Assembly: GCF_056746865.1 (NCBI RefSeq)
Contig: NZ_CM163382.1
DNA length: 64,000 bases
Reading direction: 5' to 3' (one strand)
In this document: piece after piece, positions 9,885 to 47,875 of the stretch
How the letters are laid out: every line of letters starts with the position of its first letter
How positions within the stretch are numbered: the first letter of the stretch is position 1
Program-made: the position numbers and the translations under genes
The notes under the pieces: generated by a model
What the model was told of the DNA's origin: nothing
Databases searched by the model: none
The model's input: only the letters and a program-made list of their open reading frames with translations

Positions 9885-11216
9885 ATGGAAAACGCTAAAA
9901 TGAATTCGCTCATCGCCCAGTATCCGTTGGTAAAGGATCTGGTTGCTCTTCAAGAAACCACCTGGTTTAATCCTGGCACGACCTCATTGGCTGAAGGTTT
10001 ACCTTATGTTGGCCTGACCGAACAGGATGTTCAGGACGCCCATGCGCGCTTATCCCGTTTTGCACCCTATCTGGCAAAAGCATTTCCTGAAACTGCTGCT
10101 ACTGGGGGGATTATTGAATCAGAACTGGTTGCCATTCCGGCTATGCAAAAACGGCTGGAAAAGGAATATCAACAACCGATCAGCGGGCAACTGCTACTGA
10201 AAAAAGATAGCCATTTGCCCATTTCCGGCTCCATAAAAGCACGCGGCGGGATTTATGAAGTCCTGGCACATGCAGAAAAACTGGCTCTGGAAGCGGGGTT
10301 GCTGACGCTTGAAGATGACTACAGCAAACTGCTTTCTCCGGAGTTTAAACAGTTCTTTAGCCAATACAGCATTGCTGTGGGCTCAACCGGAAATCTGGGG
10401 TTATCAATCGGCATTATGAGCGCCCGCATTGGCTTTAAGGTGACAGTACATATGTCTGCTGATGCCCGGGCATGGAAAAAAGCGAAACTGCGCAGCCATG
10501 GCGTTACGGTCGTGGAATATGAGCAAGATTATGGTGTTGCAGTCGAGGAAGGACGTAAAGCAGCGCAGTCTGACCCGAACTGTTTCTTTATTGATGACGA
10601 GAATTCCCGCACGTTGTTCCTTGGGTATTCCGTCGCAGGCCAGCGTCTTAAAGCGCAATTTGCCGAGCAAGGTCGTATCGTCGATGCTGATAACCCTCTG
10701 TTTGTCTATCTGCCGTGTGGTGTTGGCGGTGGTCCTGGTGGCGTCGCATTCGGACTTAAACTGGCGTTTGGCGATCATGTTCACTGCTTTTTTGCCGAAC
10801 CAACGCACTCCCCTTGTATGTTGTTAGGCGTCCATACTGGATTACACGATCAGATTTCTGTTCAGGATATTGGTATCGACAACCTTACCGCAGCGGATGG
10901 CCTTGCAGTTGGTCGCGCATCAGGCTTTGTCGGGCGGGCAATGGAGCGTCTACTGGATGGCTTCTATACCCTTAGCGATCAAACCATGTATGACATGCTT
11001 GGCTGGCTGGCGCAGGAAGAAGGCATTCGTCTTGAACCTTCGGCACTGGCGGGTATGGCCGGGCCTCAGCGCGTGTGCGCATCAGTAAGTTACCAACAGA
11101 TGCACGGTTTCAGCGCAGAACAACTGCGTAATGCCACTCATCTGGTGTGGGCGACGGGAGGTGGAATGGTGCCGGAAGAAGAGATGGAGCAATATCTGGC
11201 AAAAGGCCGTTCATAA
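9885..11216 (+). CDS. dsdA: D-serine dehydratase (PLP-dependent)
   Basis: 443-aa [22 protein letters not shown]..., PLP-lysine context SGSIKARGG. Confidence 0.9.
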
Positions 11217-11321
11217 CGTTTCAACGCAGCATCGCCATCCTTTCCCTGGGTGAGCGATGCTGCCGATGGCGCAGACTTAAGATTCTACCGTCTTACCTGC
11301 TATAGCTCTCTCTTTTTACCA

Positions 11322-12860
11322 TCACCCAACGCCTTTCGCTGTAAACGGCGGTTTCGCAAACCAAACCAATACCGTAAGTAAGATAAAAGCAATAGCCGCC
11401 ATACGGAAAATCTCATTTGCAGAAATTGAAAGTGACTGCTGAGTTATTTCATTATTAATTTCATTAAGAACCCCTGAAAGCGAACCATAGTATTTATCCA
11501 TAATTTGTGACGATGAATTAAACACGGGGTTAAATTGATCGATTGTTGCTGTCAACTGACTATGGTGTAATGATTCTCGGCGTCCCCACAGCGTCATTGT
11601 CAACGACGTACCAACTGATCCTGACAAGGTACGAAAAAAATTACTCATACTCGAGGCATTGGCAAATTTATTATCTGGCAAACCTGAAAACGAAATCGTT
11701 GTTAAGGGTAAAAAGAAACAGGCGACGGCGAATCCCTGAAAAAACTGTGGCAAAATGATGCCTGTAAAATCAATCGTTGGCATAAATGTCACAGAACGCC
11801 AGTAATAGCAAACCGCATACATTAAAAAACTAAATGTCACCAACAACCGCATATCAATTTTGTTGCCATAACGTCCTATCAAAGGTGATATTAATAGCGG
11901 CATGATGCCGATGGGCGCATAGGCAAGTCCGGCCCATATCGCATTATACCCCATCGTTTCCTGGAGTAACTGCGGCATAAGGACTATCGCCCCAGAGTAA
12001 AATAAATACGCGCATGTGATACTCACAATACCAATGGTGAAATTACGGGACTTAAACAAACTGAGATCAAGAATCGGGTTCTCTGAGGTCGACTCCCAAA
12101 TGACTAAAGAAATCAGAGAAATAACTGACACTACTGTTAGTATTATTATTGTACTCGAGTTGAACCAATCCAGGTCGCGCCCTTTATCAAGCATTATCTG
12201 CAAGCCACCAACACCGAGCACTAACAGGGTCAGTCCTGGTAGATTCATTTTGACCGGTGAAGTCTCAGTTTCTCTTCCTTTAAGTAAGGTTAAGCATAAT
12301 GTCAGAACGATAATCCCCATAGGGACATTGATTAAAAATATCCAACCCCAGCTAAAGTTATCGCAAATATAGCCGCCCAATATCGGCCCACATATCGGAG
12401 CGATAATTACGGTCATTGACCATAATGCCAAAGCAAATGTTCTTTTTTCTGGCGGATAATTCCTTAATAATAAACTCTGTGACAGTGGAATTAACGGCCC
12501 CGCCATTAACCCCTGAACGACTCTAAAAAATATCAGCACATCAAGATTGGTCGATAGGCTACACATTAAGGAAGACAGCGAAAAAAAAGTGACTGAAAGT
12601 AAAAATAATCTTAATTCGCCTATTCTTTGTGCCAGCCTGCCGGTAACAGGGATCGCAATGGCATTTGCTACGCCAAACGAAGTGATAACCCAGGTGCCTT
12701 CGTCTGTTGATGCTCCCAGAAAGCCAGATATTGTCGGTATTGCGACGTTAGAAATAGTGGAATCCAACATTTGCATAAACGTCGCTAATGACAATGCAAT
12801 AGTGACGCACCATAACGTCCCACCGGTTAATGGTGCCGGAGTTGATTTAGTGATTGCCAT
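11322..12860 (-). CDS. emrY: Multidrug efflux MFS transporter EmrY (EmrB paralogue)
   Basis: 512-aa 14-TM MFS ORF downstream of emrK, overlapping it by 1 bp. Confidence 0.9.
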   Translation of the reverse strand: MAITKSTPAPLTGGTLWCVTIALSLATFMQMLDSTISNVAIPTISGFLGASTDEGTWVITSFGVANAIAIPVTGRLAQRIGELRLFLLSVTFFSLSSLMCSLSTNLDVLIFFRVVQGLMAGPLIPLSQSLLLRNYPPEKRTFALALWSMTVIIAPICGPILGGYICDNFSWGWIFLINVPMGIIVLTLCLTLLKGRETETSPVKMNLPGLTLLVLGVGGLQIMLDKGRDLDWFNSSTIIILTVVSVISLISLVIWESTSENPILDLSLFKSRNFTIGIVSITCAYLFYSGAIVLMPQLLQETMGYNAIWAGLAYAPIGIMPLLISPLIGRYGNKIDMRLLVTFSFLMYAVCYYWRSVTFMPTIDFTGIILPQFFQGFAVACFFLPLTTISFSGLPDNKFANASSMSNFFRTLSGSVGTSLTMTLWGRRESLHHSQLTATIDQFNPVFNSSSQIMDKYYGSLSGVLNEINNEITQQSLSISANEIFRMAAIAFILLTVLVWFAKPPFTAKGVG

Positions 12861-14023
12861 TAAAGTTGTCCATTATGCGAAATAATGTTGCTAATTTCTT
12901 TTTCTATCGGACTGGTATCGATAACTAAAGCCTTACTGGTATAAGCAGGCATGGACGTCACGGTTGAAGCCAGATCGGGCATCTCGGCAATGTCTTCGTT
13001 CCTGGTATCAATAGTTGCAGTCATCGATAAACCAATGCGCAAGGGATGTTCCATGAGTTCTTTTGGATCAAGAGAAACTTCAACCGGGACACGCTGAACG
13101 ATTTTGATCCAGTTCCCTGTCGCATTTTGTGCAGGTAATAAGGAGAACGCATTGCCGGTTCCCATATTGATCCCTGTCACCCGACCATGAAACACAACAT
13201 TTTCACCATAGAGATCGCTGATAATATTGACCGATTGACCAATCCGTACATCCGTGAGTTGTGTTTCTTTAAAGTTGGCATTAACCCACATTTGACGTGC
13301 CGGTACAACAGCCATTAACGATTGTCCGGGACTCACTGTTTCGCCAACCTGAACGCTTCTCTGGGCAATATAGCCGGTAACAGGACTCTTAATATCCGTA
13401 CGTTTAAGCACTAACCAGGCTTCTTTGGTTGCATCCGCCGCTTCAACGACTTGTGGCTGACGGTTTAATGGTGTGTTCATTACTAAAGCTTTATTCGCTT
13501 TATAAGCCTGAATAGCAGCATTCAATGCCGCTTTGCTACTTATTAACGTATCTTTGGTATGCTCCAGCGTTTCTTTTGAAATAACCCCCTGCTTCGCTAA
13601 AGGTACACGACGGTTATAATCTTCTAAAGATTGTTGATACTGAATACGTGCTGAAGCGACTTCGGCACTGTATTGTTTATCCTGTAAGTACAGTTTATTC
13701 GTTTGCCGAACAATATTGGCCAGATTATTTTTAGCTTTATTGAGTGCGATAGTGGCATCAGTCTTATCCAGTGAGACTAAAATGTCACCCTGTCGAACGT
13801 AGTTCGTATCTTTATGATTAACGACAGTGACGCTGCCTGAAACTTGTGCAGAAATTGGATCTGCATTCCCCGTGACATAGGCGTCATCTGTACTAATCAT
13901 GTCTTCTAATTCCATTGACCAATAGGCATAGGCACCTGAAAACGCAATAAATAAAACTACCGCCAATAAAGAAAAGTATTTTCTTCTGTTAGAATGTTTT
14001 TTATTTGAATTAATCTGTTCCAC
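12860..14023 (-). CDS. emrK: Multidrug efflux membrane fusion protein EmrK (EmrA paralogue)
   Basis: 387-aa ORF with single N-terminal TM and coiled-coil/HlyD-like body; divergent from evgA. Confidence 0.9.
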   Translation of the reverse strand: MEQINSNKKHSNRRKYFSLLAVVLFIAFSGAYAYWSMELEDMISTDDAYVTGNADPISAQVSGSVTVVNHKDTNYVRQGDILVSLDKTDATIALNKAKNNLANIVRQTNKLYLQDKQYSAEVASARIQYQQSLEDYNRRVPLAKQGVISKETLEHTKDTLISSKAALNAAIQAYKANKALVMNTPLNRQPQVVEAADATKEAWLVLKRTDIKSPVTGYIAQRSVQVGETVSPGQSLMAVVPARQMWVNANFKETQLTDVRIGQSVNIISDLYGENVVFHGRVTGINMGTGNAFSLLPAQNATGNWIKIVQRVPVEVSLDPKELMEHPLRIGLSMTATIDTRNEDIAEMPDLASTVTSMPAYTSKALVIDTSPIEKEISNIISHNGQL

Positions 14024-14438: not shown

Positions 14439-15053
14439 ATGAACGCAATAATTATTGATGACCATCCTCTTGCTATCGCAGCAATTCGTAATTTATTGAT
14501 CAAAAACGATATTGAAATCTTAGCAGAGTTGACTGAAGGCGGAAGCGCCGTTCAGCGGGTGGAAACACTTAAGCCTGATATCGTCATCATTGATGTCGAT
14601 ATCCCCGGAGTTAACGGTATCCAGGTGTTAGAAACGCTAAGGAAGCGTCAATATAGCGGAATTATTATTATCGTCTCCGCTAAAAATGACCATTTTTACG
14701 GGAAACATTGTGCTGATGCTGGCGCTAATGGATTCGTGAGTAAAAAAGAAGGCATGAACAATATCATTGCGGCTATTGAAGCTGCAAAAAATGGCTACTG
14801 CTATTTCCCCTTCTCTCTCAACCGGTTTGTTGGAAGTTTAACGTCCGACCAGCAAAAACTCGACTCCTTATCGAAACAAGAAATTAGTGTCATGCGATAT
14901 ATTCTTGATGGCAAGGATAATAATGACATTGCTGAAAAAATGTTCATCAGCAACAAAACTGTCAGCACTTATAAAAGTCGCCTGATGGAAAAATTAGAAT
15001 GTAAATCACTGATGGATCTTTACACATTCGCACAACGTAACAAAATCGGCTAA
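14439..15053 (+). CDS. evgA: Response regulator EvgA (NarL/FixJ family)
   Basis: 204-aa ORF with REC domain (IIIDDHPLA, D-box) and C-terminal LuxR-type HTH. Confidence 0.9.
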   Translation: MNAIIIDDHPLAIAAIRNLLIKNDIEILAELTEGGSAVQRVETLKPDIVIIDVDIPGVNGIQVLETLRKRQYSGIIIIVSAKNDHFYGKHCADAGANGFVSKKEGMNNIIAAIEAAKNGYCYFPFSLNRFVGSLTSDQQKLDSLSKQEISVMRYILDGKDNNDIAEKMFISNKTVSTYKSRLMEKLECKSLMDLYTFAQRNKIG

Positions 15054-15057
15054 CCAC

Positions 15058-18000
15058 ATGAAGTTTTTACCCTATATTTTTCTTCTCTGTTGTGGTCTTT
15101 GGTCGACCATAAGTTTCGCAGACGAAGATTACATCGAATATCGTGGCATCAGTAGTAACAACCGTGTCACACTTGATCCACTACGTCTGAGCAACAAGGA
15201 ATTACGTTGGTTAGCGAGCAAGAAAAATCTTGTGATTGCAGTACACAAGTCCCAAACGGCTACGTTGTTGCATACCGATTCGCAGCAACGGGTTCGTGGT
15301 ATTAATGCTGATTATTTAAATCTGTTAAAAAGAGCGTTAAATATCAAATTAACACTCCGGGAATACGCCGATCATCAAAAAGCAATGGACGCGCTGGAAG
15401 AAGGTGAAGTCGATATAGTGTTATCACATTTAGTTGCTTCGCCGCCTCTTAATGATGACATTGCTGCAACCAAACCACTGATAATTACCTTTCCGGCGCT
15501 CGTCACCACCCTTCACGATTCAATGCGACCGCTTACCTCATCAAAACCAGTAAATATTGCTCGAGTAGCAAATTATCCCCCTGACGAGGTAATTCATCAA
15601 TCATTTCCAAAAGCAACAATTATCTCTTTTACAAATTTATATCAGGCATTAGCATCCGTCTCAGCCGGACAGAATGATTACTTTATTGGTAGTAACATCA
15701 TTACCAGCAGTATGATTTCCCGCTATTTCACTCACTCCTTAAATGTAGTGAAATATTATAACTCGCCGCGTCAATATAACTTTTTCTTAACCAGAAAAGA
15801 TTCAGTCGTTCTTAATGAAGTACTCAATCGGTTTGTTGATGCTTTAACAAATGAAGTTCGCTATGAAGTATCACAAAATTGGCTTGATACAGGAAACCTG
15901 GCCTTTCTGAACAAACCATTAGAACTGACTGAACATGAAAAACAGTGGATAAAGCAGCATCCCGATTTAAAGGTGCTGGAAAATCCTTACTCCCCTCCCT
16001 ATTCTATGACGGATGAAAATGGCTCGGTTCGGGGCGTTATGGGGGATATTCTTAATATTATTACCTTGCAAACAGGTTTAAATTTTTCTCCGATCACCGT
16101 TTCACACAATATCCATGCCGGAACACAGCTTAATCCCGGCGGATGGGATATATTACCTGGTGCTATTTATAGTGAAGATAGAGAAAATAATGTTTTATTT
16201 GCTGAAGCCTTCATAACAACGCCTTACGTTTTTGTCATGCAAAAAGCGCCTGACAGTGAACAAACATTAAAAAAAGGAATGAAAGTTGCCATTCCCTATT
16301 ATTATGAGCTTCATTCGCAATTAAAAGAGATGTATCCGGAGGTAGAGTGGATAAAAGTCGATAACGCCAGCGCTGCATTTCACAAGGTCAAGGAAGGTGA
16401 ACTTGATGCTCTGGTCGCGACACAGTTAAATTCGCGTTACATGATCGACCATTACTATCCTAATGAACTTTATCATTTTCTTATTCCCGGCGTTCAGAAT
16501 GCATCACTTTCGTTCGCTTTTCCTCGCGGAGAACCGGAACTTAAGGATATTATTAATAAAGCACTGAATGCAATTCCCCCAAGCGAAGTTCTGCGCCTGA
16601 CGGAAAAATGGATTAAAATGCCCAATGTGACCATTGACACATGGGATCTCTATAGCGAGCAGTTTTATATTGTTACGACATTATCCGTTTTATTAGTTGG
16701 CAGTAGCCTTTTATGGGGATTCTACCTGTTACGCTCAGTTCGTCGTCGTAAAGTCATTCAGGGTGATTTAGAAAACCAAATATCATTCCGGAAAGCACTC
16801 TCGACTCCTTACCGAATCCAACTTATGTCGTAAACTGGCAAGGTAATGTCATTAGTCACAATAGTGCATTTGAACATTATTTCACTGCTGATTACTACAA
16901 AAATGCAATGTTGCCATTAGAAAACAGTGAATCACCCTTTAAAGATGTTTTTTCTAATACGCATGAAGTCACAGCAGAGACGAAAGAAAATCGAACAATA
17001 TACACACAGGTATTTGAAATTGATAATGGCATCGAGAAAAGATGCATTAATCACTGGCATACATTATGCAATCTGCCAGCCAGCGATCATGCTGTTTATA
17101 TTTGTGGTTGGCAAGATATTACCGAGACGCGTGATTTAATTCATGCTCTCGAAGTAGAGAGAAATAAAGCGATCAATGCAACTGTCGCAAAAAGTCAGTT
17201 TCTGGCAACAATGAGTCACGAAATAAGAACACCAATAAGCTCCATTATGGGCTTCCTGGAACTTCTGTCGGGTTCTGGTCTTAGCAAGGAACAACGGGTG
17301 GAGGCGATTTCACTTGCCTACGCCACCGGACAATCACTCCTCGGCTTAATTGGTGAAATCCTTGATGTCGACAAAATTGAATCGGGTAACTATCAACTTC
17401 AACCACAATGGGTCGATATCCCTACTTTAGTCCAGAACACTTGTCACTCTTTCGGTGCGATTGCTGCAAGCAAATCCATCGCATTAAGTTGCAGCAGTAC
17501 GTTTCCTGAACATTACCTGGTTAAGATCGACCCTCAGGCGTTTAAGCAGGTCTTATCTAATTTACTGAGCAATGCTCTCAAATTTACCACCGAGGGGGCA
17601 GTGAAAATTACGACCTCCCTGGTTAACATTGATGACAACCACGCTGTAATCAAAATGACGATTATGGATTCTGGAAGTGGATTATCACAGGAAGAACAAC
17701 AACAACTGTTTAAACGCTATAGCCAAACAAGTGCAGGTCGTCAGCAAACAGGTTCTGGTTTAGGCTTAATGATCTGCAAAGAATTAATTAAAAACATGCA
17801 GGGTGATTTGTCATTAGAAAGTCATCCAGGCATAGGAACGACATTTACGATCACAATCCCGGTAGAAATTACCCAACAAGTGGCGACTGTCGAGGCAAAA
17901 GCAGAACAACCCATGACACTCCCTGAAAAGTTGAGCATATTAATCGCGGATGATCATCCGACCAACAGGCTATTACTCAAACGCCAGCTAAACCTATTAG

Positions 18001-18650
18001 GATATGATGTTGATGAAGCCACTGATGGTGTGCAAGCGCTACACAAAGTCAGTATGCAACATTATGATCTGCTTATTACTGACGTTAATATGCCGAATAT
18101 GGATGGTTTTGAGTTGACTCGCAAACTCCGTGAGCAAAATTCTTCCTTACCCATCTGGGGGCTTACAGCCAACGCACAGGCTAACGAACGTGAAAAAGGG
18201 TTAAATTGCGGCATGAACTTATGTTTGTTCAAACCGTTGACCCTGAATGTACTGAAAACACATTTAAGTCAGTTACACCAGGTTGCGCATATTGCACCTC
18301 AGTATCGCCACCTTGATATCGAGGCCCTGAAAAATAATACGGCGAACGATCTACAACTGATGCAGGAGATTCTCATGACTTTCCAGCATGAAACGCATAA
18401 AGATCTACCCGCTGCGTTTCATGCGTTAGAAGCTGGCGATAACAGAACTTTCCATCAGTGTATTCATCGCATCCACGGTGCGGCTAACATCCTGAATTTG
18501 CAAAAGTTGATTAATCTTAGCCATCAGTTAGAAATAACGCCCGTTTCAGATGACAGCAAGCCTGAAATTCTTAAGTTGCTGAACTCTGTTAAAGAACACA
18601 TTGCAGAGCTGGACCAGGAGATTGCTGTTTTCTGTCAACAAAATGACTAA
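15058..18650 (+). pseudogene. evgS: Hybrid sensor kinase EvgS, interrupted by a 1-bp frameshift near 16803
   Basis: Two ORFs (15058..16833 frame 1; 16908..18650 frame 3). Frame 3 is already open from 16803 and carries the continuation DSLPNPTYVVNWQ...; true N-part 582 aa + C-part 615 aa = 1197 aa, the length of intact EvgS. Confidence 0.7.
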
Positions 18651-18704: not shown

Positions 18705-19850
18705 TTACGATGAGAATTCCTGGCGAATTTGTTCCCCATGCTGGTCGAGCGTTGCCGCTCCCGGCATAACATGCGGGTCCGCGCAGCCGCTGATTTTTAT
18801 CGGATTACCCGGCATCATTATTCCCCCGGCTTCAATCAACATATTTCTCGCCTGAGTTTGTGGCAAATTAATGGCCTCAGCCACACTTAATAACGGCGCT
18901 ACGGGTACACCAACTTCATGTATTCTGGCTAACCAAACTTCAGCTGCCTGTGTTTTTAACGTCCGCTCAATATATTGTTTAAGAATAGCCTGGTTTTGTA
19001 CGCGTAAAATATTGCTGATAAATCGGGGATCATCAACCAGCTCCGTCAGATCCAGTGCCTGACATAACGCAGAAAAAAGCTTGTCATTACCACAACAAAT
19101 CGTAATCGGCTTATCCTGAGTATCGAAAACATCAAAAGGTGCCATGTAGGGGTGACGATTTCCCAGACGTTGTGGTGACTTCCCAGTCGCGATATATGCC
19201 ATCAGTCCGTGCTCCAGAAAACTCAGCGTGGCATCAAACATCGCTATATCGACATGCGCCCCTCGTTGGCTCTTTTCGCGGCCATAAAGTGCACTCACTA
19301 TTCCACTGAATAAATAGACACCGCCACATAAATCCGCAAGAGAGGTACCCACGCGCACTGGCGGAGCATCAGGGTATCCCGTTTCCATCATTATCCCGCT
19401 CATTGCCTGAATGATGGTATCGTAGGCAGGAGCATCTTTTAGCGGGCCGGTATGCCCAAAACCTGACGATGAAGCATATATGAGACGCGGGTTGATTTCT
19501 TGTAGCGTTTCCCATGAAAACCCCAGTTTTTCCATTGTACCTGGGCGAAAATTCTCAGCTAATACATCCGCTTGTTTAAGCATATTTATAAATATGCTTT
19601 TATCGTGATCATTCTTTAAATCAAGAACCACACTCTCTTTGCCATGATTAATAAAACTGTAATAGAGTGACTGTCCATCCACATAGGGACCAAATGTGCG
19701 GGTATCATCACCATGACCCGGCGGCTCAACTTTAATTACCCTTGCGCCCATATTACAAAGAAGTTGAGTTCCGAAAGGTCCATTAAGGACATGTGTCATA
19801 TCGATAACTAATAAGCCTTCAAACGGCCCTTTGCATTCATTATTTGTCAT
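18705..19850 (-). CDS. yfdE: Acetyl-CoA:oxalate CoA-transferase YfdE (family III CoA transferase)
   Basis: CaiB/BaiF-type CoA-transferase sequence; start trimmed to MTNNECKGPFEGLL (381 aa). Confidence 0.85.
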   Translation of the reverse strand: MTNNECKGPFEGLLVIDMTHVLNGPFGTQLLCNMGARVIKVEPPGHGDDTRTFGPYVDGQSLYYSFINHGKESVVLDLKNDHDKSIFINMLKQADVLAENFRPGTMEKLGFSWETLQEINPRLIYASSSGFGHTGPLKDAPAYDTIIQAMSGIMMETGYPDAPPVRVGTSLADLCGGVYLFSGIVSALYGREKSQRGAHVDIAMFDATLSFLEHGLMAYIATGKSPQRLGNRHPYMAPFDVFDTQDKPITICCGNDKLFSALCQALDLTELVDDPRFISNILRVQNQAILKQYIERTLKTQAAEVWLARIHEVGVPVAPLLSVAEAINLPQTQARNMLIEAGGIMMPGNPIKISGCADPHVMPGAATLDQHGEQIRQEFSS

Positions 19851-19923
19851 TTGCTTATGCCTTGAAAAAAGCCGAAGGTGAAAAGACACTTCGGCATTTA
19901 TGTAAAATCAATAACATGATTAA

Positions 19924-20868
19924 TTATGAAACCAGTCGACTGACATAAATCCACAAAGGAGCCGTGACGACAAAGCCCAGTACGCTCACAGCCAGTGACG
20001 CTGTACCAGTGCGGGTGTAGACATTAAACCGGCTGGCAATAATGATTCCGGAGAATGCCGGCGGTAAGGCGCCTGCCAGTACCATCATCTGCAAATGTTC
20101 GCTGTTCAAATGACATGCCATACCAACGAGAAGCAGCGCCAGTGGCATCAGAATTAGCTTCAGGAAGGTGTTATAAGCAATTTCGGCACTGAACTCGAAT
20201 TTATGTGCAGCCAGAGTCAACCCCGCAGCGAATACCGCCACCCCTGAGTTTGCCTTCGCAATCAGATTAAAGGTTGGGTCCCATGCTGCCGGAATTTTTA
20301 CCCCAACCAACACCAGGATCGTTGCCAGAACAGGTGCCCATACTACTGGCTCCTTTGCCGCAGAAATTAATGCGCTCAGATTACTATTCTTCTTACCATC
20401 CGCTCCTGAGGAAGGATTCAGCAAATACAGACCAATAGGAATAGTAATTGCGTTAACAATAATAGAAATAATTGCTACCACTAAACCTGTTGATACGGAA
20501 TCGCCATAAATAGGATCGAGAACTGCAAATCCCAGGAATCCGATGGTAGGTGAACCTGCAATTAATGCACATACTGCTGCTTCTGCATGAGTACGTTTAA
20601 AAAATTTGTAGCAACCAAACCAGGAGAAAAAGAAACATCCGACAATAACCACAAGTGATACAAGGGTCAGGCGAGTGTCCGCAAAAATCATTTCCCTGTT
20701 TGCCCGGGTAATAGAAACAAATAGGGCCGCAGGAAGAGCGTAGTTTAATACCAGTTTATTAAATGCCCGGGCTTGATCTTCTGAAAAAGTTTCTCGTCTG
20801 CCGCTAAAATAACCCAACAGCATGATTACGATAATAGGCAATAAATCGCCAATAAAAAATGTTAGCAT
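19924..20868 (-). CDS. yfdV: AEC-family transporter YfdV
   Basis: 314-aa polytopic membrane ORF within the frc-oxc-yfdV-yfdE cluster. Confidence 0.85.
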
Positions 20869-20936
20869 AATAGTATTTCCGATAAGGGTCCCCTCACCAT
20901 CGATAATGAGTTGGCAAGAGGAGACGATGTCAGTAT

Positions 20937-45685: not shown

Positions 45686-47875
45686 TTAATCAGCTAATGG
45701 CTGCGGGCGACCAATCAAATACCCTTGCAGATATTGCACCCCGAGCTTATGCAATAGCGCCTGCTGCTGTTGCGTCTCGACAAACTCCGCGACCACACTC
45801 AATGACTTCGCTTTCGCCAGATCGGTAATTGATCTCACAATCATCGCATCCAGCGTATTCGTGACGATATCTTTCACAAAGACGCCATCAATTTTGATGA
45901 TATCAGCCTGCAAACGCTTTAACCGTTCGTAGTTGGCATAACCGGTGCCAAAGTCATCAATCGCAATCCGGAAACCAAACTTATGCAGTTGCTCGATGTT
46001 GTACATGCTGCTTTCTGCGTTAGAAAACGCCTGCTCCTCGGTGATCTCAAGAATGACCGCCTGCGGGGAGATGTGATAACGCTTAAACAGACGAATAATC
46101 CGCCCGGCAATATTCTTTTGCAGCAGCGTGAGCGGCATTAAATTGACTGAAAAGCGCGGGCCTTTTTTGTCGCAAGGATGTGTTGCCAGCCACTTCAACA
46201 GGGATTCCAGCACTTGCAAATCAAAACGCGCGCTAAGGTTAAACTGAGCAATAAGGGGCAGAAACTTATCCGGGGTCATAATGCCGCCGTCATATTTCAG
46301 TCGCGCGAGGATCTCATCATAACCTTCACCCTCTTTGTTGCGAATTGGCTGGGCGTAGAGCAGCAAATCACCCTGATCTAACGCCGTGCGAATGGTATTC
46401 AGCAATAGCACCTGTTTAGTGGTCTGCCCGGAAACCATCTCCTCTCTGCTATCCAGCGCCAGCACATGGTGATGTGCGCAGGATTGCTCCGCCAGCCAGC
46501 TTAACTGCCCCAACAAGGGTTGCAGGGTTTCCTGATTTCCATCAAAACGCCCCCAGGCAGCACCATAGCCCATATCCAGCCCGGTATTGTTCCAGTGAAT
46601 TTGCCGACTATTCAGGATGTTAACCATATGCTGGAGTCGCCCTTCCGTTTCCGGTCCACTCAGCACTAACAGCAGTTCACTACCCGGCAATTGATACAAC
46701 TTTTCGTTTTCCTGCATCAACGGCAGCAGCGTACGGTAAATTGAGCGGATACAGTGAACGCGCATCATTAAGCCGTAATGACGACTCATAAACTCAAGAT
46801 TATCAATGCGCAGGCAGCAAAAACTCTTGCCCGCCTCTTGCTCCGGCGCTTGCTCCAACGCACGAAAGTTGGGTAGGAGCGTTAACGGATCGGTCAGCGC
46901 CTGCAAATGCCAGCGGCGATTAAGCCATTCACTGCGATGATAAATGCGCACCATATAGAGCAGGCAAACGCTAAAGGAAATCAGCACCGCGAGAATAAAT
47001 GCCAGCGAATATTCGGTTAGTACCCCTTGCAAAAAGTTCTGGTTGTAATTCAGCAGGCAAAGCGTTGAAACAGCCCAGGTGAGATTTAAAAACGGATAGC
47101 GAAGCTTACCGACACCGAGGGTAAAGATGATAAAGAAAACAGGTACCAGGTAACCGGCAATAAAGTCATTCTCATACGGTGTGCACATCAGAAGTAGCAG
47201 CACGCTAAGAGCTGCCAGCCAGCTTAAGGTAAATGCGCGTTTCTCTTTGCTCAACGACGGAGCGATATCCCTGCGCCACAATATCTGCGCAAAGTGGGGA
47301 CTTACAATCATGCGAGTGAGATAGTAGAAAAGCATGTTGTAAATCAGCACAGCGGTGAAAAGGCTTAGTAAATCAACGACTGTGAAAATGGCATCCGCAT
47401 CGCCGAAAAAGGTGGATATCTTTAGCGGGAAATCAAAAAAGCTCCCCACAAGATACATGCTGCATTTGATGCCGATCGGCGTCACCAAACCAAGCCAGAA
47501 AAGACGTTGCCAGACATATCGGCTGGTCAATCCATAACGCCAACGCGTCCCCAGCTGCCAGCGTAATATTGCGCAGGCACACAACACAACAAACGTCTGG
47601 CTGCCGAGCATGACCGCGGTCTGTAAAAAAGAGAGATGAAAGTTCCACAGATTGGTGCAAAACATCCCGCATAAAACGGGAACGACACCGCGCCAGCCAA
47701 AGATAAACAAGATTGACAGCATTACGCACAGTGGCATCCACGCCAGAAAGATATAACTGGAATGGATAATGGCAAGTGGCGAAATAAAACGGGATAGCTG
47801 AATAAGTACCACGGTGAGCGTAAACGCTAGTGTGAATATCTTGATATTTTTTATCAGGTTATGCTCCACAAACAT
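45686..47875 (-). CDS. pdeA: c-di-GMP phosphodiesterase PdeA (YfeA): MASE1 membrane domain, degenerate GGDEF, EAL
   Basis: 729-aa ORF from MFVEHNLIKN...; multi-TM N-terminus, C-terminal EAL domain. Confidence 0.85.
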   Translation of the reverse strand: MFVEHNLIKNIKIFTLAFTLTVVLIQLSRFISPLAIIHSSYIFLAWMPLCVMLSILFIFGWRGVVPVLCGMFCTNLWNFHLSFLQTAVMLGSQTFVVLCACAILRWQLGTRWRYGLTSRYVWQRLFWLGLVTPIGIKCSMYLVGSFFDFPLKISTFFGDADAIFTVVDLLSLFTAVLIYNMLFYYLTRMIVSPHFAQILWRRDIAPSLSKEKRAFTLSWLAALSVLLLLMCTPYENDFIAGYLVPVFFIIFTLGVGKLRYPFLNLTWAVSTLCLLNYNQNFLQGVLTEYSLAFILAVLISFSVCLLYMVRIYHRSEWLNRRWHLQALTDPLTLLPNFRALEQAPEQEAGKSFCCLRIDNLEFMSRHYGLMMRVHCIRSIYRTLLPLMQENEKLYQLPGSELLLVLSGPETEGRLQHMVNILNSRQIHWNNTGLDMGYGAAWGRFDGNQETLQPLLGQLSWLAEQSCAHHHVLALDSREEMVSGQTTKQVLLLNTIRTALDQGDLLLYAQPIRNKEGEGYDEILARLKYDGGIMTPDKFLPLIAQFNLSARFDLQVLESLLKWLATHPCDKKGPRFSVNLMPLTLLQKNIAGRIIRLFKRYHISPQAVILEITEEQAFSNAESSMYNIEQLHKFGFRIAIDDFGTGYANYERLKRLQADIIKIDGVFVKDIVTNTLDAMIVRSITDLAKAKSLSVVAEFVETQQQQALLHKLGVQYLQGYLIGRPQPLAD

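Follow-up and report, generated by a model that had tools for sequence, protein, structure and literature searches.

In the window, i.e. the whole stretch of 64,000 nucleotides of Escherichia coli DNA analysed here, the sensor-kinase gene evgS is split into two reading frames by the loss of one G on the (+) strand, between positions 16803 and 16804. The change is probably a genuine null allele that has turned evgS into a very young, strain-private pseudogene, and this is the most likely of the readings weighed below. The operon, its neighbours and the site of the lesion are laid out as follows.

11322..14023, (-) strand: emrY-emrK, divergent efflux operon regulated by EvgA; intact, with 0 differences from a relative (annotation of relative L002)
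14439..15053, (+) strand: evgA, response regulator of 204 aa and first gene of the evgAS operon; intact, with the coordinates and sequence of annotated evgA (WP_000991370.1) in L002
15058..16833, (+) strand: 5' part of evgS, with signal peptide, two periplasmic SBP domains, TM helix, 24 cytoplasmic residues, 9 out-of-frame codons and TAA
16803..16804, (+) strand: site of the 1-bp deletion, placed by alignment with strain 118UI, by 3594/3594 identity once the G is re-inserted, and by best genome matches that span 102 bases
16803..18650, (+) strand: 3' part of evgS in frame 3, residues 583-1197 and stop, with PAS region, HisKA, HATPase, receiver and HPt
16908..16910, (+) strand: ATG (Met618), the first possible start of the downstream half in a start-codon scan; without Shine-Dalgarno complementarity
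18705..25079, (-) strand: yfdE, yfdV, oxc, frc and yfdX, the oxalate/formyl-CoA cluster; intact, with 0 differences from a relative (L002 annotation, shifted by -1)

The split gene has the genomic context of evgS, lying directly downstream of evgA and divergent from emrKY, and its flanking genes are syntenic. The yfdE-yfdV-oxc-frc-yfdX cluster on its other side was placed in the EvgA regulon by the original prediction. Further upstream, positions 4000-11220 hold, downstream of a tRNA-Arg gene, a 153-nt DUF4942 remnant and then a sucrose-utilisation block composed of an oligosaccharide MFS transporter, a kinase, cscA and a LacI-type regulator; a dsdX fragment without its N-terminus adjoins this block and is followed by dsdA. 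According to the L002 annotation this content is common to close relatives, and it is therefore a feature of the lineage and not a private one.

The frame-1 ORF runs from 15058 to 16833 and encodes 591 aa ending in FRKALSTPYRIQLMS, with the TAA at 16831-16833 in the ORF listing. The last in-frame residues of this product are FRKALS; nine out-of-frame codons (TPYRIQLMS) follow before the stop. Read from 16803, frame 3 translates as DSLPNPTYVVNWQGNVISHNSAFEHYF and continues for 615 residues to a stop at 18648-18650. Translation of both frames gives 582 + 615 = 1197 evgS residues, which is the length of EvgS. In an alignment with strain 118UI a single gap is seen (118UI CTCTCGGACTCC, window CTCTCGACTCC), and the missing base is one of the GG in TCG-GAC, at Ser582/Asp583. 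When one G is added after position 16803, a gene of 3594 nt is obtained, of which 3594/3594 bases are those of 118UI evgS (protein WP_001323380.1). Relative to intact orthologues the lesion is thus a 1-bp deletion, an indel of a length not divisible by three, as in a frameshift pseudogene. Being a fixed feature of the sequence and no statistical pattern, it raises no question of chance.

These results uphold all that could be checked of what had been proposed from the letters of the window: the identity of the gene, the end of frame 1 at 16833, the count of 1197 residues and the loss of a single G from TCG-GAC near 16803-16804; the reservation about a sequencing error was justified as well. 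Comparison with evgS of other E. coli, which had been suggested as a check, returned the one-G gap against 118UI in an otherwise identical gene. Two statements need a small adjustment. Frame 3 does carry the expected continuation, but it is open from 16767, after a TGA at 16764-16766, and not merely from 16803. The continuation does number 615 residues, but the first ATG, GTG or TTG in that frame is the ATG at 16908 (Met618), so that the downstream ORF that could be started is of 580 aa.

The domain order of EvgS (signal peptide, 2 x SBP_bac_3, TM, PAS, HisKA, HATPase, REC, HPt) is complete when the two frames are read together, with the following limits.

Residues 3-21: signal peptide (hydrophobic segment)
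Residues 64-276: SBP_bac_3 (Venus flytrap) domain 1, Pfam
Residues 306-520: SBP_bac_3 (Venus flytrap) domain 2, Pfam
Residues 536-558: transmembrane helix (hydrophobic segment)
Residues about 570-699: PAS region, by homology to the BvgS PAS structure 6ZJ8 (E = 8e-4)
Residues 711-777: HisKA, Pfam
Residues 825-937: HATPase_c, Pfam
Residues 961-1070: Response_reg, Pfam
Residues 1104-1185: Hpt, Pfam

The EvgS family model of NCBIfam (NF007420) is matched by the N-terminal ORF over model positions 1-583 (1404 bits) and by the C-terminal ORF over positions 618-1197 (1371 bits); neither ORF reaches the curated whole-protein cut-off of 1995 bits, as would be required of a full-length family member. 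The break lies 24 residues past the TM helix, no more than 13 residues into the PAS-homology region. It therefore separates the sensing and membrane part of the protein from its kinase, receiver and HPt modules, and on the domain map the earlier statement that the sensor is severed from its kinase/REC/HPt portion holds.

The allele has not spread. When a query of 101 bases across the deletion site was compared with 5,426 complete E. coli genomes, 5,393 matched, and the best matches all span 102 bases at 99.0% identity, which means that the extra G is present in each of them; the deletion allele occurs in 0/5,426. An exact 37-mer of the allele has no match among JGI metagenome contigs, and the exact 591-aa product is missing both from a collection of 15 billion proteins and from a gene-position index. 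The 580-aa downstream ORF is already recorded (WP_323719658.1) and is carried by eight contig loci. These records were considered as support for the allele and set aside: all five of the loci checked have the wild-type TCGGAC, and their 580-aa ORFs arise from an IS1 insertion in evgS, from other indels or from contig ends. A literature search on evgS together with frameshift or pseudogene returned nothing specific. The allele is either private and very recent, or an error.

The background of the strain bears on this choice. More than 20 genomes differ from the window over its first 25 kb by the evgS gap only, and the near-identical matches to the 101-base query include a strain with the label O15:H18 ST69; the lineage of the source strain includes ST69-type isolates. 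The whole 64 kb was compared base by base with strain 2017C-4173W12, the closest relative compared, and four differences were found, namely the evgS deletion, two substitutions (25787 and 47790) and a 709-bp insertion. The substitution at 25787 is a C-to-T change in yfdY ((-) strand, 25727-25969) that turns Met61 of YfdY into Ile (M61I), and it was present in 0/5,413 matching records. At 47790, in pdeA, the allele of the window is the common one (4,111 perfect-match records) and the variant belongs to 2017C-4173W12.

The insertion, at about 29941-30649, splits ypdA, the gene for the sensor kinase of the YpdA/YpdB system, after nucleotide 592, and the two pieces of the gene now lie at 29349-30011 and 30790-31758. 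The insert carries the gene for an IS200/IS605 transposase (NF033573, E = 2e-43; tnpA on the (-) strand at about 30051-30506), and none of the 5,426 complete E. coli genomes contains its junction with ypdA. Since the related strain ST3 has an IS200C copy 99.0% identical to it at another position, between genes, the sequences suggest that this element may be mobile in the lineage. An IS200 insertion in ypdA cannot be a base-calling error. Two sensor-kinase genes, evgS and ypdA, are in this way privately disrupted 13 kb apart in one strain. Because the ypdA insertion and the M61I change of yfdY are also private, the strain has a recent mutational history of its own. Apart from the evgS deletion, the 64 kb contain no 1-bp indel relative to 2017C-4173W12, and the assembly thus shows no visible tendency to indels.

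The main rival to a genuine null allele is that evgS of the strain is intact and that one G of the GG was dropped in base-calling, assembly or polishing, which is doubtful but quite possible. Such an error would leave exactly what is seen, a single deletion in an otherwise identical gene and an allele that none of the other genomes, metagenome contigs or protein records searched contains; that the allele was never met independently also counts against a genuine mutation. A rate of one indel in 64 kb does not exceed the residual error of many finished assemblies, and 1-base frameshifts in otherwise conserved genes are often artefacts, as Touchon et al. point out for several E. coli genomes in print (PMC2617782) and as is put forward more broadly in PMC11017572. 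In addition, evgS is under purifying selection overall, with a dN/dS of about 0.1 (PMC5706723), which speaks against its genuine loss. Against an error stands the context of the site, which is a GG dinucleotide and not a typical homopolymer error site, in line with the original prediction that no long homopolymer is involved. The lack of any second 1-bp indel argues in the same direction, as do the genuine private changes close to it that alter proteins, the IS200 insertion in ypdA among them. The gene is furthermore dispensable and is lost or attenuated in other natural strains (PMC4283999, PMC5706723). The downstream half carries zero further changes and thus no secondary decay, which fits an error and a very recent mutation equally. 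A genuine deletion remains the probable explanation. The sequence data show directly the lesion and its exact position, its privacy, the absence of secondary decay and the lack of restart signals, whereas the true loss of the base from the DNA and the null phenotype are what we infer.

Two further readings accept the deletion and would let the gene keep an output. In one of them both halves are expressed, and a soluble kinase fragment, present at a low level and started at Met618 or produced by occasional correction of the frame, phosphorylates EvgA independently of any signal and deregulates the regulon. Its appeal lies in the catalytic core, since HisKA, HATPase, REC and HPt are all intact downstream, and in the constitutive activity of a soluble cytoplasmic EvgS (EvgS-Cyt), beginning just past the TM helix and expressed from a plasmid (PMC5573083). 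However, a scan of frame 3 for ATG, GTG and TTG finds no start before Met618, and a product begun there would be short of the first third of the PAS-homology region, about 48 residues, among them N573, S584 and S600, the positions to which activating EvgS mutations map (PMC4283999). The S600I substitution, which impairs the PAS domain, abolishes all activity of EvgS-Cyt (PMC5573083), and for the same reason, a damaged PAS region, the Met618 product should be inactive even if made. Nor are there expression signals of its own for this part: Met618 has no ribosome-binding site (duplex with the 16S rRNA 3' end of +0.6 kcal/mol, against -5.3 for evgA), no sigma-70-like promoter lies within 16400-17000, and the start is 75 nt beyond the premature stop, which together with the missing Shine-Dalgarno sequence makes translational coupling unlikely. 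As the split is moreover not conserved in any other genome, this reading is very unlikely. A conserved split-gene sensor, i.e. a kinase naturally encoded by two genes, was considered as a separate case and is excluded, the arrangement being found in 0/5,426 genomes and the second part having neither a start at its head nor a ribosome-binding site.

The other reading holds that programmed -1 ribosomal frameshifting or transcriptional slippage brings the ribosome back into frame, so that full-length EvgS is still made. Nothing speaks for it beyond the recovery of the frame that a -1 shift at the TCG codon would bring. At the site the sequence reads CTC-TCG-ACT (C-TCG-ACT), which does not fit the X-XXY-YYZ pattern of a slippery heptamer, and no run of A/T is present on which slippage could occur. 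The 106 nt at 16795-16900 fold with an MFE of -16.5 kcal/mol (z = -0.47), no better than shuffles, and as the two-frame arrangement occurs in 0/5,426 complete genomes, nothing has selected for recoding. With slippery site, RNA structure and conservation all missing, recoding was rejected as extremely unlikely.

If the null allele is genuine, its consequences for the cell could be as follows. With one G lost from the GG at codons 582/583, translation would halt nine codons later, and at most a 591-residue periplasmic and membrane fragment would be made, predicted to be exportable and membrane-anchored but to have no signalling output. The distal 1.85 kb, encoding PAS, HisKA, HATPase, REC and HPt, would be untranslated or barely translated, since its earliest start is Met618 and it has neither a ribosome-binding site nor anything resembling a promoter. 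EvgA would then not be phosphorylated by its own kinase, and because of this the induction of the EvgA regulon by mild acid (pH about 5.5) would be lost in growing cells, affecting the ydeP-safA-ydeO branch that leads to GadE/AR2 as well as emrKY, while RpoS-dependent acid resistance in stationary phase would be kept. No polar effect would be expected, evgS being the last gene of its operon and yfdE convergent. These expectations agree with published work in which a chromosomal evgS deletion gave no response to low pH, and in which EAEC 042, which has no evgAS, survived acid shock poorly in exponential phase and kept its RpoS-dependent resistance in stationary phase (PMC4283999). The original prediction had left open whether the lesion should silence or deregulate the regulon. 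On the present analysis silencing is much more likely; the part of that claim concerned with deregulation finds little room, given that there is no start before Met618 and that a soluble cytoplasmic EvgS whose PAS domain is impaired shows no activity (PMC5573083).

Set beside its intact relatives, the allele differs in nothing but the break itself. Closely related E. coli such as strains 118UI and 2017C-4173W12 have an intact EvgS (NF007420; WP_001323380.1) that is the same in sequence as that of the window once the G is restored, and they share with it the evgA-evgS operon and the neighbours emrKY and yfdE-yfdV-oxc-frc-yfdX, whereas in the window the frame is broken at codon 582/583. The gene evgS has been studied in depth, and other cases in which this sensor is naturally inactivated are on record. 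The same two-component system is lost by deletion of evgAS in EAEC 042, one published strain has a 21-residue PAS deletion in EvgS (PMC4283999), and both evgS and evgA are fragmented in Shigella dysenteriae Sd197 (Table S3, PMC2617782). In the public assembly GCA_964056295.1 (locus positions 1374-5743) an IS1 lies in evgS after an N-terminal product of 617 aa, about 35 codons downstream of the break in the window, and leaves the same 580-aa downstream ORF. Unlike these, the allele of the window results from a 1-bp deletion and not from an IS or a larger deletion, and it is private and without secondary mutations. In another public assembly, Logan SRR30896132 (locus positions 1-5743), evgS appears in three pieces and emrK in two, which gives it a noisy look.

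The non-responsive natural alleles of Roggiani, Yadavalli and Goulian (2017, PMC5706723) come close in outcome, in that acid sensing is lost with evgA and the regulon intact, as would be the case here; they are, however, full-length proteins with amino-acid polymorphisms, and the allele of the window is a truncation. The EvgS-Cyt constructs of Sen et al. (2017, PMC5573083) sever the cytoplasmic modules close to the position of the break. Such constructs start right after the TM helix with a complete PAS domain and are provided with a plasmid promoter and ribosome-binding site, in contrast to the downstream half in the window, whose earliest start, Met618, falls inside the PAS region and which has no expression signals.

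Whether a non-essential sensor was knocked out very recently or a single base was misread in sequencing, the evgS change is an ordinary one. As an allele it is a fresh, private instance of the natural loss or attenuation of EvgS already documented. A broader reading would be that the deletion is real and that it and the IS200 insertion in ypdA are two independent private sensor-kinase knock-outs, 13 kb apart, brought about by recent selection to shed environmental sensing in an extraintestinal or host-adapted clone, or else that the orphan EvgS fragment or a Met618 kinase keeps a signalling role; this is very unlikely. No new question is opened by the allele, since natural E. coli and Shigella in which EvgS is lost or attenuated have been described before, and if it is an error the only outcome would be a wrongly annotated pseudogene. 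It is mildly notable that a second sensor-kinase gene of the same strain, ypdA, carries a private disruption so close by. If the deletion is real, growing cells of the isolate would be without the acid resistance that EvgS brings about in mild acid and would not induce emrKY, which would be relevant to work on acid stress, efflux or colonisation with this strain, and it would add one more case to the natural variability of EvgS.
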